Below are positions 1,948-40,130 of a DNA stretch of 44,881 nucleotides, in pieces; positions within the stretch are counted from its first letter, which is position 1, and each line of letters opens with the position of its first letter. The notes below the pieces were generated by a model, which saw nothing but the letters and a program-made list of their open reading frames with translations, was not told the origin of the DNA and ran no database searches. Source of the DNA: Escherichia phage SM_A2; the sequence record PP920552.1. One strand, given 5' to 3'. The translations under genes were made by a program, and so were the position numbers.

Positions 1948-3468
1948 ATGACCGTTAACGTTGACAACCAGCACCCACTCTATGCGCGTATCGCGCCAGA
2001 GTGGAAAATGATCCGGGATTGTGTAGCCGGGGAGCGCGCCGTTAAGGCGTGCGGCCCTTTATACCTGCCACATCCCGCCAGCGGCGACAATACCGACCCG
2101 AAATCACGGGCGCGGTATAAGGCGTATAAGCAACGCGCTGTATTCCTGAACGCCACCGCCCGCACACTTAACGCGCTGTTGGGCGTTGCCTTTGCAAAAC
2201 CGGTAAGTCTGGACCTTTCCGGGGCGATGGCTGACCTGATTGATGACGTAGACGGCAGCGGTATGCCATTGCCGCAACTCCTGCGCGGTGCTATGTCGGA
2301 AGTTCTGCAATCGGGCCGCGCTGGCTTTATGGTGGACTACGACCGCCAGGCCCACTTTGACGAACTGGGTAACGTAGTGCCGCAGACCGCCGCCGAGATG
2401 GCTGCGCACCGTCCGCTTATCCGCCTGTATACGGCAGAACAGATCATCAACTGGCGGCAGACCCACGGTGTTGACACGCTAATCGTGCTGAAGGAAACGG
2501 ATGAGATCAGCACCGAAGACCCGGACGACTTCGCAAACCACGAAGTAACCATCTGGACCGAGCTTCGCATGATTGACGGCAAGGCGCACGCCCGCCGCTG
2601 GTATTACAACGCTGACACGTCCGAGGTGCAAATGGACTTGCCGCGTGGCTTCACCCGCACCGACCTTGTGCCATTGGTGGATGCTTCCGGTAATGCGCTT
2701 ACGCAACTGCCATTTTGCTGGTGTGGCGCGGTGGACAACAACGCATCCCCTGACGCCGCGCCGCTGGCGGATATTGCGTCCATCAACATTAAGCACTACA
2801 ACGCCGAAGCGGACGTCGCCGAGATCGCGCACATTGTGGGCCAGCCGACCCTCGTTGCTACGGGCCTGACTCAATCATGGGCTGACAAAAACCTGAAGGG
2901 TGGCATTGCTCTCGGCGCAACTAAGGGCGTTATCCTGGGCCAGAACATGGACGCTAAACTTATTCAGGCCGAGGAGCGCAACTTGTCTGTTGCACTGTGT
3001 GAGCGCCGCGAGTTGCAAATGGCTAAACTTGGCGCGGCCCTGGTTGAGAAGGGGACCGCACCTAAGACGGCAACCGAAGCGGCCTACGATGCGCAGACTG
3101 ACAACAGTATCCTGTCACTGATTGCCGGTAACGTTGAGAAGGCTTTCAACCGGGCGCTGCAAATTGTCCAGCTATTCACTGGAGACACCGCCGACCAGCG
3201 CGTGACGCTGAACAAGTTCTACACCGAAATCTCGGTTGATGCGCAGCTTATGACTGCAATGATGGCGGGTGTGCAGACTGGTACGGTCCGACTTGCTGAC
3301 TTCATCAAGTGGATGATGGCGCAGGGCGTCATTGATGACTCGCAAACCGTCGAGCAGGTAGAAGACGAATTGCGAAATCAGAATCCATTGCCTCAAATGT
3401 CCACGGATGCGGTAGAATCTACCGAAGAAGACCCGGACAAGGTAGCGGACAATGGCGAGAACGATTAA
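1948..3468 (+). CDS. portal protein
   Basis: 506 aa ORF immediately after terminase with RBS AAGGAAACG before ATG at 1948; size and position typical of portal; acidic C-terminus. Confidence 0.75.
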   Translation: MTVNVDNQHPLYARIAPEWKMIRDCVAGERAVKACGPLYLPHPASGDNTDPKSRARYKAYKQRAVFLNATARTLNALLGVAFAKPVSLDLSGAMADLIDDVDGSGMPLPQLLRGAMSEVLQSGRAGFMVDYDRQAHFDELGNVVPQTAAEMAAHRPLIRLYTAEQIINWRQTHGVDTLIVLKETDEISTEDPDDFANHEVTIWTELRMIDGKAHARRWYYNADTSEVQMDLPRGFTRTDLVPLVDASGNALTQLPFCWCGAVDNNASPDAAPLADIASINIKHYNAEADVAEIAHIVGQPTLVATGLTQSWADKNLKGGIALGATKGVILGQNMDAKLIQAEERNLSVALCERRELQMAKLGAALVEKGTAPKTATEAAYDAQTDNSILSLIAGNVEKAFNRALQIVQLFTGDTADQRVTLNKFYTEISVDAQLMTAMMAGVQTGTVRLADFIKWMMAQGVIDDSQTVEQVEDELRNQNPLPQMSTDAVESTEEDPDKVADNGEND

Positions 3469-4555
3469 TCAACATCTGGCGGATCGCATGATCCGCCGTC
3501 ACATTTTCACCCAGCGCCTGAGCAATGACCAGGCGCGAAGGGTGCTGGCTATGTGGGAGAAGTTCCGACCCACGCTACTGGGGAAGCTGACCGAGTTACT
3601 TGATGGCAAAAAGGCCATGAATAACAAGGCGCTTACCACACTGTTGACGCAACTCGATAAGACCGTTAAGACGGAACTGCGCACCGAGTTTAAGGCGCTG
3701 GCGGAAAGCCTTCAGGAGTTTGCCGACTCGGAGGCCGATTATCTTGTCGATACACTAACGGCAGCGATCCAGCCCGCGGTCGCCGTGCCTGCGGTCGAGG
3801 TAGTGGGCGTTGTGACCGGTGCGCAGATTGCAGCGACGGCTATGAAAAACCCGTTCCAGGGCAATACGATGATGCAATGGCCTGACTCACTCTCTGAGTG
3901 GACCAGGACGCAGATCGGCAATCAGGTGCGCGCGGGCTTCATCCAGGGCAAGCCGACTATGGAAATAATTGCGGACGTAAGGCGCGCGCTCGGCGGTCGT
4001 AGTGCGCAGGCCATCTCAAGCGTGGTTAAGTCCGCAGTCAACCACTATGCGGCGACCGCCCGCGAATTAATGGTGAAAGCAAATGACGATATTCTCGAAG
4101 GTCGCCAATGGTTGGCTACATTGGACACTCATACCTCCCCTATGTGCCAGCTACGCGATCGCCTGTTTTATCCTGTTGACGTCACTCCCGACACCAAAGG
4201 GAAGCGCGGCGGAAAAGTGGTGGCTGGATCGCAGTATGGCGCTGGCCCGGGCAAGCTGCATTATTGCTGCCGTTCGACTGAGACGTGGAAAGTCAAAGGT
4301 ATGGAAGATTGGCCCAGTGGTAAGCGTCCGGCACTGAAGGCTGACGCGGGTCGATTGCTGAGTGAGCAAGTCGACGCGCAGACTGATTTCTTCTCATGGG
4401 TGCAGCGCCAGCCGCGCCATATTCTGGAGGAATTATACGGGGTGCAGCGCGCGGACCAGATTATGCGCGGCGTGAAAGTGCCGAAGATGTTCACCGACAC
4501 AGGCGAACTAATGACTATTGCACAGCTTAAAAACCGGGGGTTATGGCGTGATTAA
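3452..4555 (+). CDS. head morphogenesis protein (Mu F / SPP1 gp7-like, putative)
   Basis: 367 aa ORF overlapping the portal 3' end by 17 nt; conserved position between portal and scaffold. Confidence 0.6.
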   Translation: MARTINQHLADRMIRRHIFTQRLSNDQARRVLAMWEKFRPTLLGKLTELLDGKKAMNNKALTTLLTQLDKTVKTELRTEFKALAESLQEFADSEADYLVDTLTAAIQPAVAVPAVEVVGVVTGAQIAATAMKNPFQGNTMMQWPDSLSEWTRTQIGNQVRAGFIQGKPTMEIIADVRRALGGRSAQAISSVVKSAVNHYAATARELMVKANDDILEGRQWLATLDTHTSPMCQLRDRLFYPVDVTPDTKGKRGGKVVAGSQYGAGPGKLHYCCRSTETWKVKGMEDWPSGKRPALKADAGRLLSEQVDAQTDFFSWVQRQPRHILEELYGVQRADQIMRGVKVPKMFTDTGELMTIAQLKNRGLWRD

Positions 4556-4856
4556 ATACGCAGCGATTGGATTGGTTATCGGCCTGGCGGTTGGCTTCTG
4601 GCTGGGGGACTCCTACCGTGCGGGCGTTGTGGCGAGAGCGGCGCAGGAAGCGCAAGCGAAAGCCCAACGGCAGCAAACTAAGGCTGTCGAGGGGACAGTG
4701 CAGGCCGAACAGGCCCGCGATGTGGAATACCGGACTATCACTAAAGAGGTTGTGAAATATGTTACGCGTCCTGACCGTACTGATTGCAGTTTTGATGATG
4801 AGCGCGTGCGGATCAAGCAACGTGCCATCGACGCCGCTAACCGAGTCGGTTTATAG
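4548..4856 (+). CDS. i-spanin (Rz-like inner-membrane spanin, putative)
   Basis: N-terminal TM helix YAAIGLVIGLAVGFWLG followed by a charged, coiled-coil-like periplasmic region; probable GTG start at 4548 with GGGGG 8 nt upstream (ORF track opens at TTG 4518); contains the embedded start of a lipoprotein gene in another frame. Confidence 0.5.
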   Translation: MIKYAAIGLVIGLAVGFWLGDSYRAGVVARAAQEAQAKAQRQQTKAVEGTVQAEQARDVEYRTITKEVVKYVTRPDRTDCSFDDERVRIKQRAIDAANRVGL

Positions 4857-4989
4857 ACCGCCTTGCACTTTTGAGAATGCCTCGGCAGATCCAGACGAAG
4901 ACTTGCTGGTTGATGTTAAAAATATGGAATGCGGGGCTAAGCTAAGGGCGCAAGTGCTGGAGTTGCAGAAAATAATTAGGGGGCCGTAA
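4759..4989 (+). CDS. o-spanin (Rz1-like outer-membrane lipoprotein, putative)
   Basis: ATG at 4759 with RBS AAGAGG; signal peptide MLRVLTVLIAVLMMSAC with lipobox-like Cys; short Pro/Cys-containing mature part; starts inside the i-spanin ORF in a different frame (overlapped Rz/Rz1 architecture). Confidence 0.55.
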   Translation: MLRVLTVLIAVLMMSACGSSNVPSTPLTESVYRPPCTFENASADPDEDLLVDVKNMECGAKLRAQVLELQKIIRGP

Positions 4990-5005
4990 TGGCCCCTTTT
5001 TTTTT
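4979..5005. terminator. bidirectional intrinsic terminator
   Basis: GGGGCC-GTAAT-GGCCCC hairpin followed by T9; lies between the convergent plus-strand spanin genes and minus-strand gene 5007-5771. Confidence 0.8.
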
Positions 5006-5006
5006 G

Positions 5007-5771
5007 TTAGCGCGGAATACCGCAGATTTCGTTTAACGTCTTCACGTCCAGCGCCACCGCCGTGGACTTCGGCTTGTCCTGGTATGGAATAAACTGTTCA
5101 ACTTCAGGCCACGCCTTGATCAGCTTCTTATCGGTATTGTGCATATCCAGCACGCCGGTAACAGTTAGTTTGAACGCATCATACTTAGCACGCAACTCGC
5201 GGCGGGCTTTGTCGTTACGGTCCAGGCGCTTACAGAAATCATGGTCTGCCGGGCAGTCTATACGACCGCGTGGCTTATATATCGGCAGCGCTTTCCCGTC
5301 GTCGTCGACTTCGCACACTGACGCTAACAAAATTTCCTCATACCCAGGCACAATATCGCCGAGGTCTGGAGACAGCTTATTCATGTATTTATACTCCCAG
5401 TATCCGCGATGTACTCGGAATCGGTACCCGTCTCCGCTCAATGACACGGTACGGACGTTTCCGCCTGCGTTGATTTCGAAAGTGGCGTCATAAACGCTGC
5501 CAATACCTTTTGGGCGGTCGGAGTCGAAACGATATGTAGCCTTATTGGTGTATACGCAAACGCCGTACATCTGCGACGGGTCATCGCCGATTGCTTCAAT
5601 GCGCGCACGTAGCTCGGCGAACGTATGAATGCCTACAGGCATACAGCGCAACGCAATGTCATACGCCAGGTCGCGAGAGTCCATCATGATTTTTTTGGCT
5701 TCAGTAGTGATTTCGTGGTCGCGCAGGATGTTAGCCAGAATCTGGTTTTTAATGTCTTTTGTCAGTCTCAT
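5007..5771 (-). CDS. hypothetical protein (accessory gene in head module)
   Basis: 254 aa ORF on the opposite strand to the surrounding structural genes; ATG at 5771 with GAGGA RBS; no motif recognised. Confidence 0.6.
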   Translation of the reverse strand: MRLTKDIKNQILANILRDHEITTEAKKIMMDSRDLAYDIALRCMPVGIHTFAELRARIEAIGDDPSQMYGVCVYTNKATYRFDSDRPKGIGSVYDATFEINAGGNVRTVSLSGDGYRFRVHRGYWEYKYMNKLSPDLGDIVPGYEEILLASVCEVDDDGKALPIYKPRGRIDCPADHDFCKRLDRNDKARRELRAKYDAFKLTVTGVLDMHNTDKKLIKAWPEVEQFIPYQDKPKSTAVALDVKTLNEICGIPR

Positions 5772-5815
5772 TTTCGTGTCCTCGTTGTTGGGGCTTTCGC
5801 CCCGTTTGGCTTGGT

Positions 5816-6130
5816 TTAGTTAAACTTGATGTTGCCACCGGTGGAAGTTAAGCGAGCGCATACGGCTTCAACGGCATCGACGCACATGAAATCGTTAAAG
5901 GCTTCTACCAGGGATTTGATGAAAGATGCCGGAACCAGACCGCAAGCCGGGTTATCGAAGGTTGCGGAATTGATTGCGGCCTTCGCTGCTTCAGTAGCAT
6001 TCATGCTCTGGCACAGATTCAGCGCTTCGGCGTTACGCATAGCATGAAAGGTGAAGGTTTTAGCTACGGTAGCTTTATTGAAACGGGTCATTGCTACGTC
6101 TACTGGAGTTGCTACGGTCATGTTAGTCAT
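5816..6130 (-). CDS. hypothetical protein (accessory gene in head module)
   Basis: 104 aa from the ATG at 6130, which has an AAGGA RBS 7 nt upstream (the ORF track extends to 6181); own promoter upstream; no motif recognised. Confidence 0.5.
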   Translation of the reverse strand: MTNMTVATPVDVAMTRFNKATVAKTFTFHAMRNAEALNLCQSMNATEAAKAAINSATFDNPACGLVPASFIKSLVEAFNDFMCVDAVEAVCARLTSTGGNIKFN

Positions 6131-6165
6131 CTTGTTTTCCTTCATATCTCTGTTGGTGTGCAACC

Positions 6166-6195
6166 AATATATTGCAACCAATACCCATATTGCAA
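6166..6195 (-). promoter_or_regulatory. sigma70-like promoter with ATTGGTTGCA motif (leftward)
   Basis: Read on the minus strand: TTGCAA (-35, fwd 6190-6195), 18-nt spacer containing ATTGGTTGCA, TATATT (-10, fwd 6166-6171); a second TGCAACCAAT copy at 6159-6168; upstream of gene 5816-6130. Confidence 0.5.
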
Positions 6196-6284
6196 GCGAA
6201 TTTTGCGATTATTTTTATCGCTGATAATATTAAGGCGTGAAGTCGAGCGGGTGGCCCGCTCTGCCACAATCCCAGGGGGATAGC

Positions 6285-6986
6285 ATGAAACTTACTAAAG
6301 CAGAATATGACGCGTTGCCGGAAGGTATGAAGGCGCTTTTTGTTGCCGATGGTGACGGGTATAAATCAACGTTCATGACCGCCGAAGAAGTACAGGCGGA
6401 GATCAAGGGTCTGAAAGACAACAACGCGAAGCTGGTGAGCGAGAAGAAAGCAGAAGCCGAACGCCGCGCCGAAGCTGAGCGCCTTGCGAAAGAGAAAGAG
6501 GAAGCCGCCGCGCGCAAAAATGGCGACCTCGAAGCGATCGACAAGTCCTGGAAAGATAAGTTTGCAAAACACGAAGCAGACACATCGGGAAAAATCGAAG
6601 CCTACCGCAAGCAGATCCACGATCTAACCATCGGCAGCGCTGCCAAAGACCTGGCGTCGAAGCTGTTCGGTAAGAATGCGGGCATCATGCAACGCCACGT
6701 AATGGACCGCCTGACGCTGGAAGACGGCGAAGACGGCAGCTTGAAAGTGCGTGTCTTGCAGGATGGCAAACCGTCCGCGCTGACTATGGAAGAGCTTGAA
6801 AAAGAGTTCCGTAATAACGCCGATTTTGCATCCGTCCTGGCTGGCACGCCAGCCGGTGGTGCGCCGAGCAAACCGACGCATGTTGTCGAAGATGTGAAGT
6901 CGAAAATCTCTATGGGCCACAGCTTCGGCATCACCGATCTGACGAAACAGGCTGGTGAAATCATCGCTAAAATGGGCGACGAGTAA
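6285..6986 (+). CDS. scaffolding protein (putative)
   Basis: ATG at 6285 with GGGGGA RBS; highly charged, coiled-coil-like sequence (KKAEAERRAEAERLAKEKEEAAARK); immediately upstream of the major capsid gene. Confidence 0.65.
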   Translation: MKLTKAEYDALPEGMKALFVADGDGYKSTFMTAEEVQAEIKGLKDNNAKLVSEKKAEAERRAEAERLAKEKEEAAARKNGDLEAIDKSWKDKFAKHEADTSGKIEAYRKQIHDLTIGSAAKDLASKLFGKNAGIMQRHVMDRLTLEDGEDGSLKVRVLQDGKPSALTMEELEKEFRNNADFASVLAGTPAGGAPSKPTHVVEDVKSKISMGHSFGITDLTKQAGEIIAKMGDE

Positions 6987-7083: not shown

Positions 7084-8184
7084 ATGTCTTTAACAGTGTT
7101 CCAGCGTAAACTCGTCACCGCGGTTACGCAAATGATCCCCGACAACCTGAACGTGTTCAACGCTGCCGCTAACGGTGCTGTTGTTCTCGGTACGGGTGAA
7201 GTGCTGAAGGATGTTGTAGAAAAAATGTCCGTAGGCTTGATCGCCAACCTCGTTACCGACCGTAACGCCTACGCCCCTGTAGGTACTCCGGCGACCGCAA
7301 AAGTGCTGGCGCGTATGCTGACCAACTCAGTTAACCTTTCCGCGAAAGTGGGTCCGGTAGCAATCACTAAGGCTATGATGGCTAAGATCGAAACCAACGT
7401 TAACAGCGTTGCGGCTGAGATCGCGGCCCAGGCTACTCAAGCGATTATGCTGCACTACCTGAAAGCGGGTATCGGTGCGGGCAAAGCGGCTATCGAAAGC
7501 AACGCAGCGGCAAACTACACCCAACCGGCGCGCGTTGACGGCGTTGGCGGTCGTACCTTCCCGACCCTGGCAGACTTCCCGCTGGCAGCTTCCAAGTTCG
7601 GCGATCAGGCGTCTTTGATTAAATCCTGGTTTATGGACGGCGTTACCTGGGCAAACTTCATCGCATACCAGGCGCTCCCATCTGCCGAGCAGGTATTCGC
7701 GATCGGCGATCTGCAGGTAATGGGCGACGGCCTGGGTCGCCGTTTCATTATCTCCGATGCCGCGGCTGACGCGATGGGCGCGGGTAAAATGCTGGGTCTG
7801 GTCCCTGGCGCGGTTGCAGTTACCACCAACGGCCTTGATATGCTGGCGCAGGAAAAAGGCGGTAATGAGAACATCGAGCGCTGGTGGCAGGGCGAGTTCG
7901 ACTTCAACGTGGCTGTTAAAGGCTACCGTCTGAAGGCGTCCGCTCGTACCCCGATCGAAGGCGTCCGCTCGTTCAAGCTGTCAGATATCACCACTAAGGA
8001 TAACTGGGAGCTTGACCATGGCCAGGTAGACAACGCACCGGCAACCGTGCAGGACGTTGGCGCGGTGGGTGACGGCGATACTAAAGGCCGTCGTAAGACC
8101 CAGGCCGCGCAGGAAGTGCCGACCCGTAACATCAAGGAAACGGCTGGCGTACTGGTTACGCTGACTGCGACCACTGCGTCCTAA
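7084..8184 (+). CDS. major capsid protein
   Basis: 366 aa ORF after the scaffold gene and before a strong terminator; size and position typical of a major capsid protein. Confidence 0.8.
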   Translation: MSLTVFQRKLVTAVTQMIPDNLNVFNAAANGAVVLGTGEVLKDVVEKMSVGLIANLVTDRNAYAPVGTPATAKVLARMLTNSVNLSAKVGPVAITKAMMAKIETNVNSVAAEIAAQATQAIMLHYLKAGIGAGKAAIESNAAANYTQPARVDGVGGRTFPTLADFPLAASKFGDQASLIKSWFMDGVTWANFIAYQALPSAEQVFAIGDLQVMGDGLGRRFIISDAAADAMGAGKMLGLVPGAVAVTTNGLDMLAQEKGGNENIERWWQGEFDFNVAVKGYRLKASARTPIEGVRSFKLSDITTKDNWELDHGQVDNAPATVQDVGAVGDGDTKGRRKTQAAQEVPTRNIKETAGVLVTLTATTAS

Positions 8185-8242: not shown

Positions 8243-8743
8243 ATGTATGGCGACCCGCAAACCTTTGTCGATTATGCCGCTGCGCGAGGTGTTGAAGTCA
8301 CGCTGAGCGATGCAACGCGACACCTTACCGTCGTTAATGACTTCCTTAATGGGATCAACTGGATCGGCGAACCCGCAGACCAGACCGGCATCGACGCATG
8401 GCCCCGCGTCAACTACCCGTCAGACGGTAAGCCGGTGCAAAACACGCTTACTGAAGATTTGGCAGTAGTCCCCGCGGGGCAGATCGTAGACTTCGCCTCA
8501 ACCCCCGTTGCCGTTGAACAAGCCGTTTACCGGCTGGCGATGCTGGTGGCTGACGATGTTGATATTTCTCCGATCGGCGATGGAAAGGAGACTATCCGCG
8601 AAACGGTAGGCCCGATCACGATGGAGTATGACGCTGCGTCGATTGGTAGCGGGGTGTCTTTCCCGTGGTGGGATGGATTGCTGGGCTACTGGGTGAACAC
8701 TGACGGCAACGCCGCCGGTAACTTTGACGTATACAGGGGTTAA
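8243..8743 (+). CDS. hypothetical head/connector-associated protein
   Basis: ATG at 8243 with AGGAG RBS; 166 aa; position between capsid and neck genes. Confidence 0.4.
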   Translation: MYGDPQTFVDYAAARGVEVTLSDATRHLTVVNDFLNGINWIGEPADQTGIDAWPRVNYPSDGKPVQNTLTEDLAVVPAGQIVDFASTPVAVEQAVYRLAMLVADDVDISPIGDGKETIRETVGPITMEYDAASIGSGVSFPWWDGLLGYWVNTDGNAAGNFDVYRG

Positions 8744-8744
8744 C

Positions 8745-9188
<444 letters not shown>

Positions 9189-25587: not shown

Positions 25588-25617
25588 ACTATAGTGCAAC
25601 CAACCTATTGGTTGCAA
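25588..25617 (-). promoter_or_regulatory. sigma70-like promoter with palindromic TGCAACCAA-N4-TTGGTTGCA motif (leftward)
   Basis: Minus-strand reading: TTGCAA (-35, fwd 25612-25617), 18-nt spacer, TATAGT (-10, fwd 25588-25593); overlaps the stop of gene 25605-26075; followed by hairpin GGGGGC-AATACA-GCCCCC (25561-25578). Confidence 0.5.
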
Positions 25618-26276: not shown

Positions 26277-26762
26277 TCAACGATTAAGATATTCACGTAG
26301 CTCACTCTCGCTCATTATTTCAATTTGTGCGCCGCCGGTGGGCGGCGCTTCGTCAAAGATTATCAATTGCTGGCACTTGTTATTGCTCGGCCCGACTTCA
26401 CCGGTGACTGCATGTATGAATCGGACCCGCCAGTCCAGAAGAATTATCAGGTTTGCAGTCTTCCTGGCCAACCGCGCCCACTTTGTCGACGTGTCCTGAT
26501 TCAGTAGCATGACGGTCCGACGTCCATGCGCTGCGCACTTGACCCACGGCAGCGGATCGGAATACGGCGGGTTGCACCACTTCCACCCTTTCAACTCTGA
26601 CCAGTCCGCATCGAGCGCGCTGTGCTCTGCCGTGAAGTAACGCGGTAGAAGGTGGTTGTCATCGCTCGCCGCCATGTCATATCGGAATCGGTACTTCCGG
26701 CGCAGCGGTTTAAATAAAGCTGGCGGCGTGCGCCAGCTATCCTTCTGTTCACTCTTCAGCAT
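26277..26762 (-). CDS. DNA N6-adenine methyltransferase (phage Dam-type)
   Basis: Motifs WRTPPALF near the N-terminus, DMAASDDNH, and catalytic NPPY (WCNPPYSD); 161 aa, typical of small phage Dam-family enzymes. Confidence 0.8.
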   Translation of the reverse strand: MLKSEQKDSWRTPPALFKPLRRKYRFRYDMAASDDNHLLPRYFTAEHSALDADWSELKGWKWCNPPYSDPLPWVKCAAHGRRTVMLLNQDTSTKWARLARKTANLIILLDWRVRFIHAVTGEVGPSNNKCQQLIIFDEAPPTGGAQIEIMSESELREYLNR

Positions 26763-27207
26763 GGCCTGGGTCTATCGCGTATAAAGGGACTTTATTGCCG
26801 GTTTTCATAATGCGCTGGACGCGCTTTGACTCCTCGGCGCTAAGCGGTCGGCAATCGGAGTGGTAGCTACCGTTTGCGCGCCACGCCATAAGCACCAGGT
26901 CTTTCCGGTCGATCTTAGACTGGCGACCTTTGGGGCGCACGTACTCCTCGGCACGTTTGCAATGCTCACGCAAACCATCGGCAGTGATGCGGTTTAGTGC
27001 AACGCTGGTTGTGTATCCGGTGCGCTGCATAATCCCCATCAATTCGAAAAGCAGTTCTAAGCGCTCCTCTAACTCCTTGCGCATCTTTTCCTCGCCTTCA
27101 TAGCTCGCCAGGTAGGTATCCGCCAACGCGTTCGCACGTTCGGCCTGTTCGCGGGCTTCGAGGCATTGCGCGGCCCAGTAATTTTTCTCTTCTTGTAAAA
27201 TTTTCAT
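26749..27207 (-). CDS. hypothetical protein
   Basis: 152 aa; ATG 27207 with GGAGA RBS; charged coiled-coil-like N-terminus; no motif recognised. Confidence 0.5.
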   Translation of the reverse strand: MKILQEEKNYWAAQCLEAREQAERANALADTYLASYEGEEKMRKELEERLELLFELMGIMQRTGYTTSVALNRITADGLREHCKRAEEYVRPKGRQSKIDRKDLVLMAWRANGSYHSDCRPLSAEESKRVQRIMKTGNKVPLYAIDPGHAEE

Positions 27208-27254: not shown

Positions 27255-27288
27255 AATATAATGCAACCAATATGATTATGCAACCAAT
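27255..27288 (-). promoter_or_regulatory. sigma70-like promoter with tandem ATTGGTTGCA motifs (leftward)
   Basis: Minus-strand reading: ATTGGTTGCAT (-35 = TTGCAT, fwd 27278-27283), 17-nt spacer containing a second ATTGGTTGCA, TATATT (-10, fwd 27255-27260); a near-complementary hairpin plus T-run follows in the leader (fwd 27228-27250). Confidence 0.55.
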
Positions 27289-30211: not shown

Positions 30212-30250
30212 ACTATACCGCTATGCGACCAATTCAGCAACCAATAAATC
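30212..30250 (-). promoter_or_regulatory. sigma70-like promoter with tandem ATTGGT(T/C)GC motifs (leftward)
   Basis: Minus-strand reading: ATTGGTTGCTG (-35 = TTGCTG, fwd 30235-30240), 17-nt spacer containing ATTGGTCGCA, TATAGT (-10, fwd 30212-30217); lies inside the 3' end of the VRR-NUC gene. Confidence 0.45.
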
Positions 30251-30499
30251 GCAGTCGGATATGCTGTCGATAACGCGAACGTCAGCACCGCGGCGGGCCA
30301 TTCGCTCATGTTCACGTACCTGGTGCGGCTTAGGTTTTCCTCCGGGGCGCTTCACTTCGACGAACACTATTTTGCCGTTGATGATAATAATCAGGTCGGG
30401 CGCACCCGCGCGCCCCTCCCATGCAAGTTTTCGGCAGAATCCGCCGACCTCTTTCACCCGTTTCATCAGGTGACTTTGAATCTTGCCTTCTGGTGTCAT
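30221..30499 (-). CDS. VRR-NUC domain nuclease
   Basis: 92 aa; PD...(D/E)xK-type core APDLIIIINGKIVFVEVKRPG characteristic of VRR-NUC. Confidence 0.75.
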   Translation of the reverse strand: MTPEGKIQSHLMKRVKEVGGFCRKLAWEGRAGAPDLIIIINGKIVFVEVKRPGGKPKPHQVREHERMARRGADVRVIDSISDCDLLVAELVA

Positions 30500-32790
30500 T
30501 ACTTCCTGTACCTGTACATAATGTCGCCTTCGGCGGCAAGTGGGAAGCCTTTAGCCCAAATAGGCAGGTCGCACATCAGCGCGCAAAGCTCCTCGGTAGT
30601 GTAGTCGTCGGTGTCCGGCACTTCTGTGATCAATTCGTCGTGTACTGACAGGACGATTTCATACCCCGCAGCTTCAACGCCAGGCATGGACCATGCGAGA
30701 ATATCGCGACACAACGCCTGTACGATGTTCTCCGTCAGTTTGCCGCCGTAGGTATACTGGAATCCCCACTGGCGCGTCGTCTGATTCTCGCCCTGATATT
30801 TAATGCGTGTGCTGGTGCGCTTCTTGCCGGTGTCTTCGTCAATCTCGGTCGTGACCGACAGCGCGATGCCTGGGTAGCTCATGATGCGCCCGGACGGCAA
30901 CTCGATTTTCAACCACCACCCCGCGGCGTTCGGGTCGTCGCGCTCCTCGTCGAAGGTTGGGTCGTGCTTCGCCTTCGTGCGGACTATCTTGAGCGCTTTC
31001 TTACCATCCGGGCGAACGTTCGCGCCAGCCCAGTACGCTTTGCCAGGATTGCGGATTGCACACAACACCGCGTCCTCAAGCTCGGCCCAAAAGGCTACCG
31101 TCTTCGGGTGAGCCTCGCGCCACATGCGTTTAATCGCATCACACGTAAGCCATACGTTTTTCGGCAGTATGTAAGTCGGGCGCTCGTCCTTCTTGCCAGG
31201 CTTCGGCGGTCGCTTCGCTTCGTTAATGCGGGCGTACTCATAACCCCGTTTAGCCGCTGCCCAAATGTGATCGGGGAATGTGCCTTTCATGACGTCCGCC
31301 ATCGCGTAAAGGTCGAGGCCCAGGTTTTTAGCAAACTGCAGGAACGCGGCAACGCCGCCACCATAACCCAGTCCCAATTCGCACGCCTTACCAATCTGGC
31401 GTAAGTCTTTTCGGTTGGCTTTGATGTATTCCGGGTCGAGGCCAAACATCTTACCGGCAGTTTCACAATAGATATCGCGACCCGCCCTAAACACCATTAG
31501 CGCGGTTTTCTCACCAGCGATCCAGGCAAGCCCGCGACCTTCCACGTTAGAATAGTCAGCTACAACAAACTTCTTGCCCTTAGCCGGGATAATGCACCCG
31601 CGAACGGTCGAGGCCGTTAACTTCGATATGTCATACGCCCAGTGCGCTGTCCCGCGTAACAGGGAGTTGATGCCGTTGGTGAGCATGTGCGACCGGACCC
31701 AAAAAGAAACGTCGCTCTCGCCTTCACGGCGCTTAATCTTCCCTTCGTGGTCGTCGCTATACTCGCCGCGTGCCAGGTTTTGCGGCTGGAAGCCCTTACC
31801 GGCCCAGCGTAGCGTGCGTTTCGCCCCGCCATACTGGAGACACCCACGACGGCGACCATCTGCGGATAAGCCATTAACGAGCGGATTGTACTTAGTCGAT
31901 GCCGTTGATGACGCACCGAGGCGCATCTCGATAAGCACTTTGCCCTCGTCGGGGAAGTCCGGGTCTTCCAGCAGGTCGTTAAGCGTGGATTTCTGCGCGT
32001 TGTGGATTGTGAACGCAGGCGCGAGGTCGCGCAGCGCTGGCAGGAAGTCATTGCCTGTCAGCTTACCGCCGAAGCGCTCCCATGCTTCTTCCTTCAATTC
32101 TTCCTTATGCGCCTGCACCGCTTTGATCGCGGCGTTCGCCAGGTCAACGTCCACATAGAAGCCGCGGTCGTTGATCAACTGGTCAATAAGCAGGATTTCA
32201 TCTTCCTTCGGCGTGTTACCCCAGTCCGGTATGCGCCAATAGACTTCCCTCATCGCTATAATATCCAGTGCGGCATAGCGCAGGAATTTAGCCCACTCCT
32301 CGGGGTGCGTCTCGCGCGTGTAGCGGCGGATTTTGTAGGTCTTGGGGGTTGGCTTACAGAATCGTTTGATCAGCGCCTTGCCCGCCTTATCCTTCGCGTG
32401 CTCTGCGTCGACGCCCAACACCTGGCACTGCATATCGAGGCTACCCGGCAGCGCGTGGCGAAAGGCCATAATCATGGTATCCTCGATCTGGCCTACCGGC
32501 AGGTCAATGCCCCACTTCTCGCGAATAACCAGGCGGTCAAACAGGAGGCCGTTAGCCATCACTATTTTTGCTTTCTTGCGGGATACCTGGCGGAGCGCCT
32601 TGCGCAGTTCACGCGGCATTGTTGGGGACTCGGTGCAATCCCATGTCTGCACGCGGCCCTCGTCTATGGCGTACGTGCAAATCATAATCTCGGTTGTTGG
32701 GTGTTCTGCGTAGGCGTATGCGCCCACTTTCTTCAGGTCCACCCCGCTAAATGTCTCGGTATCGAGAAAAAGGCGTTCGAAGTCTTTCAT
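30499..32790 (-). CDS. DNA polymerase I-like (family A) with 3'-5' exonuclease domain
   Basis: 763 aa; N-terminal exo motif LFLDTETFSG (DxE); C-terminal polymerase motif C-like SVHDELITEV; basic finger-like segments. Confidence 0.9.
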   Translation of the reverse strand: MKDFERLFLDTETFSGVDLKKVGAYAYAEHPTTEIMICTYAIDEGRVQTWDCTESPTMPRELRKALRQVSRKKAKIVMANGLLFDRLVIREKWGIDLPVGQIEDTMIMAFRHALPGSLDMQCQVLGVDAEHAKDKAGKALIKRFCKPTPKTYKIRRYTRETHPEEWAKFLRYAALDIIAMREVYWRIPDWGNTPKEDEILLIDQLINDRGFYVDVDLANAAIKAVQAHKEELKEEAWERFGGKLTGNDFLPALRDLAPAFTIHNAQKSTLNDLLEDPDFPDEGKVLIEMRLGASSTASTKYNPLVNGLSADGRRRGCLQYGGAKRTLRWAGKGFQPQNLARGEYSDDHEGKIKRREGESDVSFWVRSHMLTNGINSLLRGTAHWAYDISKLTASTVRGCIIPAKGKKFVVADYSNVEGRGLAWIAGEKTALMVFRAGRDIYCETAGKMFGLDPEYIKANRKDLRQIGKACELGLGYGGGVAAFLQFAKNLGLDLYAMADVMKGTFPDHIWAAAKRGYEYARINEAKRPPKPGKKDERPTYILPKNVWLTCDAIKRMWREAHPKTVAFWAELEDAVLCAIRNPGKAYWAGANVRPDGKKALKIVRTKAKHDPTFDEERDDPNAAGWWLKIELPSGRIMSYPGIALSVTTEIDEDTGKKRTSTRIKYQGENQTTRQWGFQYTYGGKLTENIVQALCRDILAWSMPGVEAAGYEIVLSVHDELITEVPDTDDYTTEELCALMCDLPIWAKGFPLAAEGDIMYRYRK

Positions 32791-33015: not shown

Positions 33016-33816
33016 TTAACGGCGGCGACGTTTGCGTGGCGCTTCGTCTTCGTCGTCGTCCTCATCATCTTCGTCATCGCGTGGCTTACGACGTTTGCGA
33101 GGTGTTTCATCTTCGTCGTCGTCATCGCGGCGCTTGGACTTTTTGGACTTGCGCGGCTTGTCGTCTTCGTCATCGTCATCACGACGTTTTGACTTTTTGG
33201 ACTTACGCGGGCTTTCGTCTTCGTCGTCGTTATCCAGGTCTTCGTCGGAACATGAAGACCCGCCACCGCCGAAGGCTTCGCCGTCTTCACGGAATCGCAG
33301 ACCCAGCAAGCCCGCCCCGAGTCCCTTGCCGTTGGTATTGTTCCATGCCCAAATATCAAGGGACACGTTGCAATAACAACCGGGGTAGATCTCCTGGCCT
33401 TCGATCTCGTCGCCTTCTACGGTCAGACCTTGTTCAGTCTGCTTCTCGCCGAGTGACGTTTGGATGATAGGCTGTTTGAACGATTTGGCGTTGATATACA
33501 ACATGCCTTCGAATTCTTCGGTTACTTCGTCGCGCTCGTCACCGTCGCGGACTGCGCATTCCTTAGAATCCTGGGCGTAGTGGCGGTCCATCCACTTATC
33601 GGCATTCTTCTCGGATTTCAGCTTGTCGGTGAGCACTGCGCGCGCTGCCGCTTCCACTTTGTCCACCTGCGGATCTTCTTTATCAAGAAGAATCACGGCG
33701 CGGTATGCCGGTTTTTGTCCATCCTGTTTAGGGGTATCACGTTCCCAAATTTTCAGGAAACATACGCGCACATTTTTCAGGTTGACTTTAGCCATTTTCC
33801 AATTCCTCATTTTCAC
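33016..33816 (-). CDS. ssDNA-binding-like protein (DUF2815-type, putative) with charged repeat tail
   Basis: 266 aa; location next to the DUF2800-like nuclease and polymerase matches the conserved phage replication module; C-terminal about 70 aa alternate poly-acidic and poly-basic blocks from tandem DNA repeats (about 33040-33235). Confidence 0.5.
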   Translation of the reverse strand: MKMRNWKMAKVNLKNVRVCFLKIWERDTPKQDGQKPAYRAVILLDKEDPQVDKVEAAARAVLTDKLKSEKNADKWMDRHYAQDSKECAVRDGDERDEVTEEFEGMLYINAKSFKQPIIQTSLGEKQTEQGLTVEGDEIEGQEIYPGCYCNVSLDIWAWNNTNGKGLGAGLLGLRFREDGEAFGGGGSSCSDEDLDNDDEDESPRKSKKSKRRDDDDEDDKPRKSKKSKRRDDDDEDETPRKRRKPRDDEDDEDDDEDEAPRKRRRR

Positions 33817-33885: not shown

Positions 33886-34128
33886 TCAAGCATTTTCATT
33901 AAAAAGATTTCTGGTCACGTAGTTGGTAGCGTTCTCGATCCAGCTTAGCGGCGGGCGTTCGATGTTCTTTTCCACCCAATCGACGGCAACTTCGCTATAT
34001 CCGTCATCCAGCCAGCGGGTCGGATGGCGAATCATCCACGCCACCATTAACACGCCTTGCACGCAATGCAGGATAAAGCCCAGCGCGCCGAGCAAAAACA
34101 TCAATAAGATTGCGAATACTTTATTCAT
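33886..34128 (-). CDS. small membrane protein (hypothetical)
   Basis: 80 aa; two hydrophobic helices (VFAILLMFLLGALGFIL, GVLMVAWMI). Confidence 0.45.
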   Translation of the reverse strand: MNKVFAILLMFLLGALGFILHCVQGVLMVAWMIRHPTRWLDDGYSEVAVDWVEKNIERPPLSWIENATNYVTRNLFNENA

Positions 34129-35551
34129 TGCTTAAGTCCTCGTCAGTAGCTTCCGACCACGCAGGGCGCGGGTCGTCGATTGGAGCTAACACCGGTTTGG
34201 CAGGTGCGCGCGTGATTTTATCACACAGCTTCGCCCACACTTTCGGTTTTTCGTCCTTCAGTACCTTCTCGGCATCCGTAGGGCTGAGCAATGTTTCTTT
34301 GTACATCACATCGCGCTTGATCCGGGCCTTCGTGAAGATTTCAATCACTTCGCTCTCGTCCGCCCACTTACGGATCCCTTCCTTACCGGCAACCATCTTG
34401 AGGCCCAGCGATTCGCCATCGCCCGCCATGACCGCCTTGAATACCGCGGACTCGATAGCCTTGATGTGCTGGCGCATTGCGTCCAGGCCTTCATAAGCCT
34501 TGCGCAGTTCCGCAGCGCTCATAGCACCGGGGGCCGCTTCTTTCTTGCCACGCTTCGCACGTCGGGCCGCCTTCCGGGCTTCGCGGGCCATATTGCGGTC
34601 GTGATTGGCGCATTCTTCCTCGGTCGCCACGCTCACGTCGTCGCCCAGGTCTTCGTCGGTTGCCGTTGGAGGTGTCATCGTGTCGATTGCGGCCTTAGCG
34701 CGGGCACTACACTGATCCGCAAATCGGCACCACTGGCACGCATCAACGCTGGGACGGAAGTCGGCACGGGTAAGTCCCTTCTTGCCTCGGGAATACGCCT
34801 CCAGTGCGGCAATAGCGCGCTTGGATGCAAACTTCGCGAATATCTCCAGCGCTTCTACCGAAATATCCCACTCCGACGCCCCGCCGCAATACGGCTGGAA
34901 GATAACCAGGCGCACGGTCGTAATGTCGTACATAGTTTGCAGCTTGCGCAGCAGGCCGAGCGCGTACAACATAAGCTGTTTGTTTTCTTTCGCCTCGACC
35001 TTATGCCTCCCGGTCTTCAGGTCGCCAACAATCAGCATGTACGTCCCATCGGTCTTTTTCATGACCATGACCATATCGGCAGTACCGAACGTTTTAATCC
35101 TGTTGCCGTCGATCTCGTAGCCTGAGTGAAGGACGCGGGTCAGATCGGCGCGCATCTCAAGCTGGACAAACTCCGCCACTTCGAGGAGCGGTCGCCAGTG
35201 GTCGATGTACGCGTCGCACTGTTTCACCATGTCGTCGTTGACCAGTACGCCGCCTTTCGGTGCTTTAGGGTGTGCCTTCACTGGCCCCTTGCCTTCGTTC
35301 TCGACGTAGCACCCTTTATACGTCTTCGCGGTTATCAGCTTCTCACCGGCGATAATGCGGTTTAGCACCACCTCAGATACGGTGTGCATACTCGTACCGT
35401 TAATCGCGGCTTGCCCGGATTCGTTCGGGATATCTTTTTCCACCACCAGGGCAGCAGGGCAACCCATCCACTTTTTAGCACCGGATGGCCCAAGTAATGA
35501 GTGTTCTGTATTGCTACCGGATTGCGTTTTACGTTTTGGTTTAATCGCCAT
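34121..35551 (-). CDS. DUF2800-type PD-(D/E)XK nuclease (Cas4-like, Fe-S cluster)
   Basis: 476 aa; N-terminal LLGPSGAKKWMGCPA; nuclease core (IVGDLKTGRHKVEAKENKQLMLYALGL); C-terminal Cys cluster CQWCRFADQC consistent with a 4Fe-4S site. Confidence 0.7.
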   Translation of the reverse strand: MAIKPKRKTQSGSNTEHSLLGPSGAKKWMGCPAALVVEKDIPNESGQAAINGTSMHTVSEVVLNRIIAGEKLITAKTYKGCYVENEGKGPVKAHPKAPKGGVLVNDDMVKQCDAYIDHWRPLLEVAEFVQLEMRADLTRVLHSGYEIDGNRIKTFGTADMVMVMKKTDGTYMLIVGDLKTGRHKVEAKENKQLMLYALGLLRKLQTMYDITTVRLVIFQPYCGGASEWDISVEALEIFAKFASKRAIAALEAYSRGKKGLTRADFRPSVDACQWCRFADQCSARAKAAIDTMTPPTATDEDLGDDVSVATEEECANHDRNMAREARKAARRAKRGKKEAAPGAMSAAELRKAYEGLDAMRQHIKAIESAVFKAVMAGDGESLGLKMVAGKEGIRKWADESEVIEIFTKARIKRDVMYKETLLSPTDAEKVLKDEKPKVWAKLCDKITRAPAKPVLAPIDDPRPAWSEATDEDLSNE

Positions 35552-36029: not shown

Positions 36030-36641
36030 TTAATCTTCCAGTTCGAAATAAGTTTCGACGATTTCTTTAAGATCTTTGTGGAAGTCTTCGACGTCGTCAT
36101 CTTCCAGCTTGGCGATTGATTTGATCTCGAACGATTCCAGCAGGTCGTCGAATTCGTCGTTGGCATCGTCGTCGTCACCACCAGCGATAATAGCGGCGTA
36201 TTGTTTGATCTCATCGCGCATCTCCGCCAGCGGATCGGCATCTTTCTTGCCTTTGCCTTTCGCCGGGGCTTTTTTAGATTTAGCCGGTTTTTCGTCTTCG
36301 GCGTCATCGTCGTCATCTTCTTCTACGACTTCTTTTTTGGCCTTACCTTTCGCCGGGGCTTTTTTAGATTTAGCCGGTTTTTCGTCTTCGGCGTCATCGT
36401 CGTCATCTTCTTCTACGACTTCTTTTTTCGCCTTACCTTTCGCCGGGGCTTTTTTAGATTTAGCCGGTTTTTCGTCTTCGGCGTCATCGTCGTCATCTTC
36501 TTCTACGACTTCTTTTTTCGCCTTAGACGGCTTCTTGTCTTCCTGCTTACCAACGGCAGCGCCAACGGTTTCATAATGCTTAGCGATGGTTTCCAGTGCT
36601 ACTACGCCGCGAGTAATCAGGTTTACGATTTGTTCAAACAT
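36030..36641 (-). CDS. charged-repeat protein, first gene of leftward operon
   Basis: 203 aa; three tandem 38-aa repeats (KKEVVEEDDDDDAEDEKPAKSKKAPAKGKAKK) from 114-bp DNA repeats (about 36245-36530); strongly acidic C-terminus; GGAGAT RBS. Confidence 0.6.
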   Translation of the reverse strand: MFEQIVNLITRGVVALETIAKHYETVGAAVGKQEDKKPSKAKKEVVEEDDDDDAEDEKPAKSKKAPAKGKAKKEVVEEDDDDDAEDEKPAKSKKAPAKGKAKKEVVEEDDDDDAEDEKPAKSKKAPAKGKGKKDADPLAEMRDEIKQYAAIIAGGDDDDANDEFDDLLESFEIKSIAKLEDDDVEDFHKDLKEIVETYFELED

Positions 36642-37385: not shown

Positions 37386-39650
37386 ATGAGCTTAATTAAA
37401 TTCGCTGTAACAAGACCCGCTAAAAAAGGCGAAAAAGCCAGGGCGGAAAACTTCCAGATGACCACCGATGAATTTTTCGAATTTATCAATGATGCGAAAG
37501 AAATCTCCTCGGTGCATATCAACAAGACGGAAGATAAAGCCGAGTATGCGCGCCGCAAGCGTAAGGCCGACGGCATCGTGGCGTATACCAGTGACGGATT
37601 GCGTCGTAAGACCAGTGCGGTGGACCGCTCGATCCTGTTCTTCGATATTGACCGCACCGACACCCGCACCCTACGCCGCTGCCGTAAGGCGTTCATTGAC
37701 GCGGGTCTGGAGCACGTCTTCCACACCACAACCGGCGACCGTCACCCACTGAAAGGCGGCACGCGTTGCGCTCGATTCCTGGTGCTCACTGACAAGCCTG
37801 TACCGGCTGAAGACCTGGGCCGCGTCCAGTATGCACTATTACACCAACTGGGTCTGTCAGATGTGGACTTCGACGATTGCACGAAAGACACAAACCGCCT
37901 GATGTACCTGCCACACCAGCAGTCTGTTATTAAGTGCCACTATGGCAAGCGCGCCCGCGTCCGTCGTCTGCTCCTCCTGGCTGACAAGCTGGGAGTTGAG
38001 AAAGAGGAAGTCCGTCGCGAACTGACCCAGGGCGACGACGCAGTGGCAGACGGCATTCTGGACTGGTGCTTCCAGGCAGGATTCGAGGAGTTATCTTCAG
38101 GGCGGGGCTATGAAGTGCCGTGCCCGAACGAACATCTGCACAGCGGCGAAGGGTCGACGGCTATCATGGTTAAGGATGGCGAGATCCGTTTCAAGTGTAT
38201 GCACACCGGCAACGAGTGTTGCTCGGAGCTGAACAGACACCAGCACCTGGCGCTACGTCTTATCGGGATCCCGGACCACCTGAACGTCGAGCCACACAAT
38301 ATGTCCCGTAAGCAAATCGCCGCCATCCTTCCGGGGCTGGACGTCGAGGAAGTCGAATCCTTATATGAACATATTGTTGATGCGGTTGGCGACGGCGAAG
38401 AATACGGCGTGTGCACCGATGCGGATCTGGATAACGAGCCGGTTGCGCTGTTCAGTAAGCACGACCCGATTATCGAGGGGTTGATTAACTTTAAATCGAC
38501 CTGGTATATGGCGGGTGAGTCGAATATCGGTAAGTCTTTCTACGTGCTGGGCCAGATGGGCGCGGTTGCCGCCGGTATTCCGTTTGGCGGTGCGAAGGTC
38601 GTACAGTCTCATTGCTTCTATTTCGACGCGGAAGGTGGCGAAGCCTCCAACCAGCGTAAAGAAGCATTGCAGATTAAATACGAGCACGACCTGGACAAGC
38701 TGCACATTATAGACCTGCAGTCACGCGGCTGGGATATCACCAGCAAATCGGGCTTGCGCGAAGTTATCAGCTTTATCAACCGCACCGCTAACGGCGAACC
38801 GGTTGGCCTGGTGGCGTTCGACTCACTCAACCAGACTGTTGCGTTGCGGTCCGCCGAGGCTAAACCGTTCGACGAGAACAACGCCAGCGATATGGGCGAA
38901 GTGGTCAAAGCGCTGAAGGCCATCGCGGAAAATACAGGTGGCAGTGCGGGCGTCATCCACCACCCGGCTAAAGGTGCAAACGGCAGCAGAACGCCACGCG
39001 GGTCCGGCGCGCTGCATGGTGCTGTCGATTCTGCGTTCTTCCTGGAACAGCCGGACGACAACCAGCCCGGACAATTGAACCTGTATCATGAGAAGTCACG
39101 TAACGGCATCAAGCAAGCGCCGCGCGGCTTCGTCCTGCTTAAGTGCAAGGTGAAGGTGGATCTCCGCAAGTCAGAAGCGTTCGAGGCGCACCAGTCCACC
39201 AGCACCGGTCCAGACTTCGGCGACGTGGTTGCCGGATGGGACGTCAAGCCGATCGCCTCCACGCCACGCGACGAGACTCTCTACCTCGTACCGGTTGCCC
39301 TGGCACCTTTCGCTATTGAACAGGCGAAGGCAGCAGGCAAGGCCGCGGTTAAGGAAGAGAACACCGCCGGGCCGCGCAACGAAAAAGAGAAAGTGCTTTA
39401 TGCGGCACTGGAAAAACTGATGGAAGATAACCCGGACCATACTGGATTCAGTAAATCGGCAATTGTCCGCCAGGCGGGACTCGCGAAAGGCGGCACTTCG
39501 ACGAAGGCAATCGACGATATGGTGGAGCGCGGAGTGATAGGTTTCTATACCGATCCGCACACCGGGGCCATCTATGGGTCGTCTAATTTGGTCATAAAAA
39601 CGGATATACCAATCACGCTTTCGGCGACCGACGAAGACTTGAAAGATTAA
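37386..39650 (+). CDS. DNA primase / helicase (primase-polymerase N-domain + P-loop NTPase)
   Basis: 754 aa; N-terminal acidic motif ILFFDIDRTD; Cys/His cluster (CPNEHLH...CMHTGNECC); Walker A GESNIGKS and Walker B-like LVAFDS. Confidence 0.8.
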   Translation: MSLIKFAVTRPAKKGEKARAENFQMTTDEFFEFINDAKEISSVHINKTEDKAEYARRKRKADGIVAYTSDGLRRKTSAVDRSILFFDIDRTDTRTLRRCRKAFIDAGLEHVFHTTTGDRHPLKGGTRCARFLVLTDKPVPAEDLGRVQYALLHQLGLSDVDFDDCTKDTNRLMYLPHQQSVIKCHYGKRARVRRLLLLADKLGVEKEEVRRELTQGDDAVADGILDWCFQAGFEELSSGRGYEVPCPNEHLHSGEGSTAIMVKDGEIRFKCMHTGNECCSELNRHQHLALRLIGIPDHLNVEPHNMSRKQIAAILPGLDVEEVESLYEHIVDAVGDGEEYGVCTDADLDNEPVALFSKHDPIIEGLINFKSTWYMAGESNIGKSFYVLGQMGAVAAGIPFGGAKVVQSHCFYFDAEGGEASNQRKEALQIKYEHDLDKLHIIDLQSRGWDITSKSGLREVISFINRTANGEPVGLVAFDSLNQTVALRSAEAKPFDENNASDMGEVVKALKAIAENTGGSAGVIHHPAKGANGSRTPRGSGALHGAVDSAFFLEQPDDNQPGQLNLYHEKSRNGIKQAPRGFVLLKCKVKVDLRKSEAFEAHQSTSTGPDFGDVVAGWDVKPIASTPRDETLYLVPVALAPFAIEQAKAAGKAAVKEENTAGPRNEKEKVLYAALEKLMEDNPDHTGFSKSAIVRQAGLAKGGTSTKAIDDMVERGVIGFYTDPHTGAIYGSSNLVIKTDIPITLSATDEDLKD

Positions 39651-39741
39651 ATTTTGCGCGCATTGGTTGCCATTTTGCGTGCTTTTAGGTGGTCGCATTG
39701 GTTGCCGCGTAGTGTAAATATGATGAATAGTTATGCAATAA

Positions 39742-40068: not shown

Positions 40069-40102
40069 ATTGGTTGCATTCACCCTGGCACCCTGCTATT
40101 TT
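40069..40102 (+). promoter_or_regulatory. sigma70-like promoter with two ATTGGTTGCA-type motifs (rightward)
   Basis: ATTGGTTGCAT (-35 = TTGCAT 40074-40079), 17-nt spacer, TATTTT (40097-40102); a second motif TTTGGTTGCAC overlaps the -10/+1 region; about 20 nt upstream of the AAGAGGA RBS of gene 40131. Confidence 0.55.
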
Positions 40103-40130
40103 GGTTGCACACCAACAAGAGGACTGAACG

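Follow-up and report, generated by a model that had tools for sequence, protein, structure and literature searches.

Why should two genes in the head gene block of a tailed phage run against the structural operon around them? The question is raised by Escherichia phage SM_A2 (sequence record PP920552.1), whose 44,881 nucleotides (nt; 44.9 kb), called here the window, look like the complete genome of a Dhillonvirus-type E. coli siphophage. The two genes lie on its minus strand and encode proteins of 254 and 104 amino acids (aa); the larger is identified below as nmad5. An earlier inspection of the letters, without database searches (hereafter the sequence-only reading), had taken them for an independently promoted, moron-like pair forming an undescribed accessory system.

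We conclude that the nmad5 locus is, near-certainly as far as its architecture goes, a self-contained, non-essential accessory transcription unit of a Dhillonvirus. Taken as a whole, the account that we consider probable is that of an accessory operon, expressed early, whose products would act where phage and host defence meet and are neither virion components nor proven DNA-modifying enzymes. The functional part of this explanation is speculative.

Architecture of the minus-strand unit

The elements of the unit, in positions of the window, are the following:
5007-5771, minus strand: nmad5, 254 aa; Shine-Dalgarno sequence GAGGA at 5783-5779
5816-6130, minus strand: 104-aa gene (phrog_24635); Shine-Dalgarno sequence AAGGA at 6142-6138
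5786-6150, minus strand: 365-nt insertion cassette that carries the 104-aa gene, within the nmad5 5' leader; CAACA direct repeat at 6155-6151 and 5790-5786
5790-5803, minus strand: intercistronic hairpin GGGGC-GAAA-GCCCC (-11.5 kcal/mol, z = -2.8), at the 3' end of the 104-aa cassette and within the indel
6195-6166, minus strand: sigma-70-like promoter, with TTGCAA (6195-6190), an 18-nt spacer and TATATT (6171-6166)
4978-5005, both strands: putative convergent hairpin terminator, shared by the plus-strand portal/MuF/spanin unit and, more weakly, the minus-strand nmad5 unit

Both open reading frames (ORFs) were found where they had been placed, opposed to the structural operon, and both are non-structural. 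The smaller one would span 5816-6181 if a TTG start were used; the best start is the ATG at 6130, which yields 104 aa and is shared by homologues in other phages. Both are real coding genes: comparison with relatives indicates strong purifying selection on nmad5 (pN/pS 0.14-0.20) and on the 104-aa gene (pN/pS 0.08-0.16).

The predicted promoter was confirmed as a sequence element and is kept in all six Dhillonviruses aligned, whether the 104-aa cassette is present or not. An A/T-rich stretch lies upstream of it (~6198-6218), and two copies of ATTGGTTGCA accompany it (6182-6173 and 6168-6159). This motif, after which the promoter had been named, proved to be real: the window holds 16 matches with at most one mismatch against 3.4 expected, a count reached by no shuffle. 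Sites are found at 6159-6182, 22723, 25595-25616, 27262-27288, 30224-30245, 36847, 39662-39706, 39978, 40069-40109 and 40633. Composite sites, in which ATTGGTTGCA is combined with -35 and -10 elements, number six, while 0.04 would be expected under a first-order Markov model; they lie at 6195, 25617, 27283 and 30240 on the minus strand and at 36852 and 40074 on the plus strand, each directed at an ORF on the same strand. The other five composite promoters are in the early/replication half of the genome, and the nmad5 unit therefore appears to use an early-gene promoter type despite its site in the head module. It was also observed that ATTGGTTGCA often occurs in pairs 12-35 nt apart that overlap the -35 and -10 elements, and that a leader, GGTTGCACACCAACA, is common to the promoters of the nmad5 unit and of the gene at 40131. 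Besides acting as a promoter element, the motif may serve a phage regulator as its operator.

The bidirectional terminator described in the sequence-only reading was upheld for one strand and qualified for the other. On the plus strand, a GC-rich stem of 8-9 bp at 4978-4998 (-18.2 kcal/mol) is followed by nine U, a canonical intrinsic arrangement. The minus-strand stem has 6 GC pairs (-13.4 kcal/mol) and precedes an interrupted U tract, CUAAUUAUUUU. The terminator is thus strong for the plus strand, and for the minus strand weaker though plausible. The hairpin between the two genes is not expected to cause termination ahead of nmad5 because the mRNA strand has no U tract there, and the 104-aa gene is predicted to be co-transcribed with nmad5.

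Alignment of six phages from the scaffold gene to nmad5 permitted direct reading of the junctions of a clean 365-nt indel. The cassette contains the 104-aa ORF, its ribosome-binding site and the terminal GGGGC-GAAA-GCCCC hairpin, and interrupts the nmad5 leader between CACACCAACA and ACGAGGACAC. It is present in the window, SM_A8 and Bas85, and absent from Gluttony, SM_S22, Teewinot and several relatives in IMG/VR; in the first three of these cassette-free phages, the same promoter stands 31-45 nt from the nmad5 ATG. The site is variable in content also. Among twelve Dhillon-type IMG/VR loci the slot is empty in four, holds the 104-aa gene in three and a 135-aa gene in two, and is occupied once each by genes of 53 aa, 170 aa and 105 aa (phrog_2510). 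In GenBank, Nmad5 with at least 80% identity is encoded in ~145 Dhillon-like records, whose slots contain the 104-aa gene (60 records), the 170-aa gene (16), the 135-aa gene (~6, including the type phage HK578) or the 53-aa gene (4). The 170-aa slot protein (locus L022; Shigella phage EP23, 5929-6438) shows weak similarity to the central domain of the DNA polymerase III beta-clamp (phrog_3007) and has 271 distant homologues (<60% identity), spread over many enterobacterial siphophages, with inconsistent annotations (clamp, polymerase, RusA).

The 104-aa protein matches phrog_24635 (E=1.5e-64) and has homologues in the Pantoea Dibbivirus AAM37 (62% identity) and in ~155-kb Ackermannviridae (53-59%). 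No Nmad5 was found within 3.5 kb of the homologues in AAM37 and YX22, and the homologues without Nmad5 belong to Dibbivirus and Aglimvirinae phages. An exhaustive profile search of 1.84 billion representatives returned only three genuine clusters at 50% identity. Given homologues away from Nmad5 and only three clusters, the 104-aa gene is best described as a rare, mobile orphan that occupies a variable slot. Its structure model, with a predicted local distance difference test (pLDDT) score of 72, is helical with a C-terminal beta-hairpin; the sole match in BFVD is the AAM37 orthologue (template-modelling score 0.84), and comparison with the PDB gave no informative match.

Three candidates were discarded in the course of this work. 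P0076, a eukaryotic repeat protein, matched the 104-aa protein by composition. An acidic gene of 156-158 aa upstream of distant Nmad5 genes, considered as a divergent 104-aa homologue, was not homologous when tested. A zinc site made of H29, C63, C83 and C91 was rejected since C83 is not conserved in P0074 or P0075.

The distribution of the two genes bears on the proposal that the 254-aa and 104-aa proteins are the obligate partners of a single two-component system for anti-defence or host takeover, as the sequence-only reading had suggested by treating the pair as a unit. The genes are indeed neighbours on one strand, have a common promoter from which joint transcription is predicted, and are both accessory. 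The 104-aa gene is, however, present in ~60 of ~145 Nmad5-bearing Dhillon-like records, the slot being empty or filled with unrelated genes in other relatives; it occurs without Nmad5 in AAM37 and Aglimvirinae phages, and distant Nmad5 loci harbor no 104-aa homologue, as their neighbours are not homologous to it. Nmad5 stands alone in about half of the Dhillonviruses and in hundreds of other phages. An obligate pair is thus largely refuted by the gene distribution, and we regard it as very improbable.

Nmad5 and escape from the Tmn defence

The sequence-only reading had recognized no motif in either product. The 254-aa protein is, however, a full-length match to Pfam PF18757, Nmad5 ('nucleotide modification associated domain 5'), with E=1.2e-55 and 189.2 bits against a cut-off of 27, residues 1-253 aligning with profile positions 1-206 of 206; it also belongs to phrog_1965. 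It is 92.5% identical to SM_A8 CDS7 and conserves K216, hence carrying the wild-type allele.

Nor can the gene be called undescribed, as its orthologue was studied experimentally in the Dhillonvirus phages SM_A8 and SM_S22 (Yamashita et al. 2025, Commun Biol 8:290; PMC11846954). That study dealt with Tmn, a membrane KAP-NTPase defence. Escape mutants selected on Tmn-expressing E. coli share one nmad5 substitution, K216E in SM_A8 and K296E in the numbering of SM_S22; the SM_S22 phage used to isolate them had its anti-Tmn gene deleted. Reversion of the nmad5 change restored Tmn sensitivity, and the engineered substitution conferred escape. Phages with nmad5 deleted were viable and remained sensitive to Tmn. 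Attempts to clone the gene in E. coli failed, apparently because it is toxic (all PMC11846954). The link to defence that had been guessed for the pair therefore holds for the larger gene. Apart from nmad5, no phage gene is known to determine escape from Tmn, a poorly understood defence.

The toxicity admits another explanation for the pair: the 104-aa protein could be an antidote or modulator of a toxic Nmad5, in a toxin-antitoxin-like or exclusion arrangement. A small gene upstream of a larger one, as in many toxin-antitoxin operons, fits the idea, and so does the failure to clone nmad5. However, the toxic nmad5 came from SM_S22, which naturally lacks the 104-aa gene or any other slot gene; nmad5 is alone in many phages, and the 104-aa gene is found without nmad5. 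This explanation stands, in our judgment, very little chance.

The published numbering deserves a comment. The GenBank coding sequence (CDS) of SM_S22 nmad5 (334 aa; locus L009, 2006-3010) starts 80 codons too early and so spans its own promoter and, in antisense, part of the scaffold gene, whereas the conserved GAGGA-ATG start is the same in SM_S22 as in the window. The 334-aa form published for SM_S22 and the 'N-terminal truncation in SM_A8' are annotation artefacts, and K296 of SM_S22 is therefore K216.

Loss of nmad5 is also seen in nature. In Teewinot (41.8 kb) the gene is lost after codon 38 and the remainder is joined to the terminator (locus L011, 2000-2130). In an 87-aa metagenomic protein (P0054), the first 49 residues of the 104-aa protein are fused in frame to the last ~38 of Nmad5, including the K216 motif. 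Judging by this deletion and this fusion, nmad5 is dispensable in nature.

An alignment of 45 distinct sequences from the whole family delimits two conserved regions: an N-terminal helix, R-L-x3-I-K-x-Q...N-x-L, and a C-terminal block, T-x-x-K-L-x3-W-P-E...P...S-T-A...A...T-L-N-x-x-C-G-x-P. The window protein carries M-R-L-T-K-x-I-K at the N-terminus and T213-x-x-K216-L-x3-W-P-E and T-L-N-x-x-C-G-x-P at the C-terminus; the Tmn-escape position is the K of T-x-x-K-L. Positions conserved across the family are T, K, L, W, P, E, A, N and G. In the 45-sequence alignment no Asp/His/Cys set is common to the whole family, and no conserved set of catalytic residues was found. Sequence-profile searches of the PDB gave no relatives for either protein of the unit, and the PADLOC and NCBIfam hidden Markov models (HMMs) gave no matches. 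In the literature searched, no biochemical activity is reported for any member of the Nmad5 family.

A separate observation concerns Tmn. A minus-strand gene at 26749-27207, directly downstream of the 27283 promoter, encodes a 152-aa coiled-coil protein that shares 82% identity with SM_S22 CDS0035; the latter probably corresponds to ORF35, published as anti-Tmn, and appears in records as 'DNA ligase'. The window phage may hence carry an anti-Tmn homologue in addition to wild-type nmad5.

Genomic company of Nmad5

Searches with tblastn detected Nmad5 in 342 phage records, which include Dhillon-like, Pseudomonas M6/YuA-like, Stx-converting and other lambdoid, Vibrio and Bordetella phages. These records, together with 39 IMG/VR loci retrieved with two peptide patterns, define four contexts:

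(i). The head-module unit of Dhillon-like phages, seen in 12 of the 39 IMG/VR loci.

(ii). A replication module with the primase-helicase gene on the opposite strand, then Nmad5, a DUF2800 PD-(D/E)XK nuclease, an Enc34-type single-stranded DNA-binding protein (SSB) and PolA (6/39). Here Nmad5 is directly upstream of DUF2800-SSB-PolA and faces the primase-helicase gene.

(iii). Lambdoid PL operons, exemplified by HK542 gp33 between N and cIII (21/39); these loci lie downstream of a cI-like repressor.

(iv). The thymidine-hypermodification cassette of M6 and SN1.

The window possesses a replication module of type (ii), with DUF2800 at 34121-35551, the Enc34-type SSB at 33016-33816, PolA at 30499-32790 and the primase-helicase at 37386-39650, and no nmad5 at the expected position. 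A minus-strand gene of 203 aa (36030-36641; phrog_3127), flanked by the divergent early promoter region on one side and the DUF2800 nuclease on the other, occupies a site that roughly corresponds to that of Nmad5 in the replication-module phages; Bas85 has two small genes there.

Modification genes in the window amount to Dam and one further methyltransferase, both ~20 kb from nmad5. No kinase, aGPT-Pplase or hydroxymethylase was found in the window, which thus has no hypermodification cassette. Association with nucleotide- or DNA-modification genes, the basis of the name Nmad5, was not found at the window locus, and the M6 modification proteins were matched at none of the 39 IMG/VR loci. From these contexts, the usual companions of Nmad5 would seem to be replication or early modules rather than modification genes.

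Such observations are relevant to the view that Nmad5 is an enzyme acting on phage DNA or nucleotides and that Tmn senses the modification. The Pfam family name agrees with it, as does the position of Nmad5 in M6/SN1-like phages, between aGPT-Pplase1 and a pyrimidine hydroxymethylase, and it is the reading of Yamashita et al. (PMC11846954). Deletion of nmad5, however, leaves Tmn sensitivity unchanged, whereas K216E escapes. The missing cassette in the window, the lack of M6 proteins at the IMG/VR loci, the presence of Nmad5 in lambdoid PL operons and the absence of a conserved catalytic residue set also speak against this view, and phenotyping in the BASEL collection describes Dhillonviruses as moderately to considerably sensitive to restriction-modification. 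Altogether, we hold a modifying enzyme to be improbable.

The neighbours of the unit are:
1948-3468: portal gene, upstream of the nmad5 unit
3452-4555: MuF-like head-morphogenesis gene, upstream of the nmad5 unit
4518/4548-4856: i-spanin (Rz-type), overlapping the o-spanin
4759-4989: o-spanin (Rz1-type lipoprotein), whose stop codon (4987-4989) lies within the loop of the shared terminator
6285-6986: scaffold gene, downstream of the nmad5 unit
7084-8184: major capsid gene, downstream of the nmad5 unit

A location in the head gene block, between the MuF-like and scaffold genes, would suit a role of both genes in head assembly or in the virion. Yet they lie on the opposite strand behind an early-type promoter, engineered nmad5 deletion mutants are viable and Teewinot is a natural deletion, and homologues reside in replication modules or PL operons. 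The profile searches proposed in the sequence-only reading found no virion structural homology for either protein, with no structural family matched in Pfam or PHROG. A virion role is thus extremely improbable. A study of Dhillonvirus proteomics (PMC10673088) lists no proteins of this interval among those detected in phage lysates; the CDS numbers cannot be mapped with certainty, and the result was not used as evidence.

Gene order in the window is colinear with that of the BASEL phage Bas85, and the 2.2 kb around the nmad5 unit match 158 phage records, phage welsh being the closest (92.9%). Further observations were made in this region. The Rz/Rz1-type spanin pair (4518-4989) is in the head module, ~37 kb away from the holin and endolysin genes (~42.1-43.1 kb). 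A perfect 7-bp hairpin, GAGCGGG-TGG-CCCGCTC, is found at 6245-6261, in the interval that separates the scaffold start codon from the promoter of the nmad5 unit. For the scaffold/capsid operon, no sigma-70-like promoter was found on the plus strand, although the plus-strand terminator at 4978-5005 should block transcription from upstream. A plus-strand gene at 8724-9188 encodes a 154-aa protein with an Ig-like/Hoc-like decoration domain and sixteen C-terminal Pro-Glu repeats; its annotation differs in Bas85.

An early accessory operon and its known relatives

In the early accessory operon that we favour, a host-type sigma-70-like promoter of the ATTGGTTGCA family would drive a short leader, and termination would take place at the hairpin that also serves the convergent spanin operon. 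Its constant cargo is nmad5, and the slot between promoter and nmad5 is either empty or occupied by a gene of 53, 104, 105, 135 or 170 aa. Host RNA polymerase would transcribe the unit early, along with the replication genes. Nmad5 itself would be made early, stay out of the virion and act as a binding protein, probably without catalysis, beside the replication-recombination machinery of DUF2800 nuclease, Enc34-type SSB and PolA, and it would touch host factors. The early and replication link is suggested by the IMG/VR contexts, by the same replication module in the window and by the shared promoter type. That the protein may not be an enzyme is suggested by the lack of a shared Asp/His/Cys set and of hypermodification genes, by the sensitivity to restriction-modification, and by the unchanged Tmn sensitivity of deletion phages. 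The K216E change in T-x-x-K-L-x3-W-P-E could then be a gained or changed interaction rather than a lost enzymatic activity, and an altered interaction surface would explain why a point mutant escapes Tmn but a deletion does not. The 104-aa protein would be a moron acquired independently and moved by horizontal transfer; most plausibly, it would serve in host interaction or counter-defence.

Several points weigh against this reading. The Nmad5 structure model is poor (pLDDT 59, with the middle region below 50) and fold searches returned generic helical matches only, and therefore the notion of a non-catalytic binding protein draws on conservation patterns alone. Given the M6/SN1-like arrangement, Nmad5 may have a modification-linked role, and the 39 IMG/VR loci are biased to three clades by the patterns used for retrieval. 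The U tract of the minus-strand terminator is imperfect. Promoter use, co-transcription and timing are deduced at the sequence level, and only at that level does the earlier claim of independent promotion stand.

A bolder extension would make the slot upstream of nmad5 a dedicated Dhillonvirus exchange site for counter-defence cassettes and the 104-aa protein a new anti-defence protein. Nmad5 would represent a new, non-enzymatic class of early proteins and would use its T-x-x-K-L-x3-W-P-E motif to make contact with immune NTPases of the host, for instance Tmn. We consider this extension rather unlikely. If it were true, one amino-acid change would be enough to alter which defence the phage evades, and the 'nucleotide modification' family name would be an artefact of guilt by association.

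The nmad5 family and the experiments on its orthologue were already known, and no new kind of system is described here. What is added is the variable cassette slot, the early-type promoter family, a new reading of the genomic associations of Nmad5 and corrected SM_S22 coordinates. Together, the wild-type K216, the renumbering of K296, the Nmad5 contexts and the cassette slot sharpen testable hypotheses. Dhillonviruses are common therapeutic-candidate coliphages, and phage engineering could make use of the slot upstream of nmad5, where insertions occur naturally and are tolerated.

The closest known relatives of the locus are those of SM_A8 and SM_S22, where the nmad5 orthologue likewise has 254 aa, lies between spanin and scaffold genes, uses the same promoter and contains K216. 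SM_A8 also carries the 104-aa gene (93% identical), whereas SM_S22 lacks the cassette. The experiments on nmad5 were made with these two phages.

The Pfam Nmad5 proteins of Pseudomonas phages M6 and SN1 resemble that of the window in their full-length HMM match and in their N- and C-terminal signatures. They differ in residing within a thymidine-hypermodification cassette, which the window does not have, and the middle region of the Dhillon-clade proteins is enlarged by a beta-rich insert of ~25 aa. Members of the same family encoded in replication modules and lambdoid PL operons (e.g., HK542 gp33) have an early-gene context adjoining recombination and replication functions. In contrast, Dhillonvirus nmad5 has become detached from the replication module and runs antisense within the head module, and it has kept an early-type promoter.

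Morons of tailed phages, as reportedly described by Hendrix and colleagues, are independently transcribed extra genes inserted between conserved genes. The comparison of gene neighbourhoods that revealed the variable slot and the independent gene distributions indicates that the moron character ascribed to the pair belongs to the 104-aa gene: its cassette is present or absent at the same site, while nmad5 is near-universal in the genus and deleted in Teewinot. Like morons, the cassette is a discrete insertion, varies in presence between close relatives and has homologues in unrelated phages; its GC content (48.9% vs 54.6%), its own ribosome-binding site and its terminal hairpin are also moron-like. 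Unlike morons, it has no promoter of its own and is inserted in the leader of an existing accessory unit; and because the window phage is virulent, a role in lysogenic conversion does not apply.

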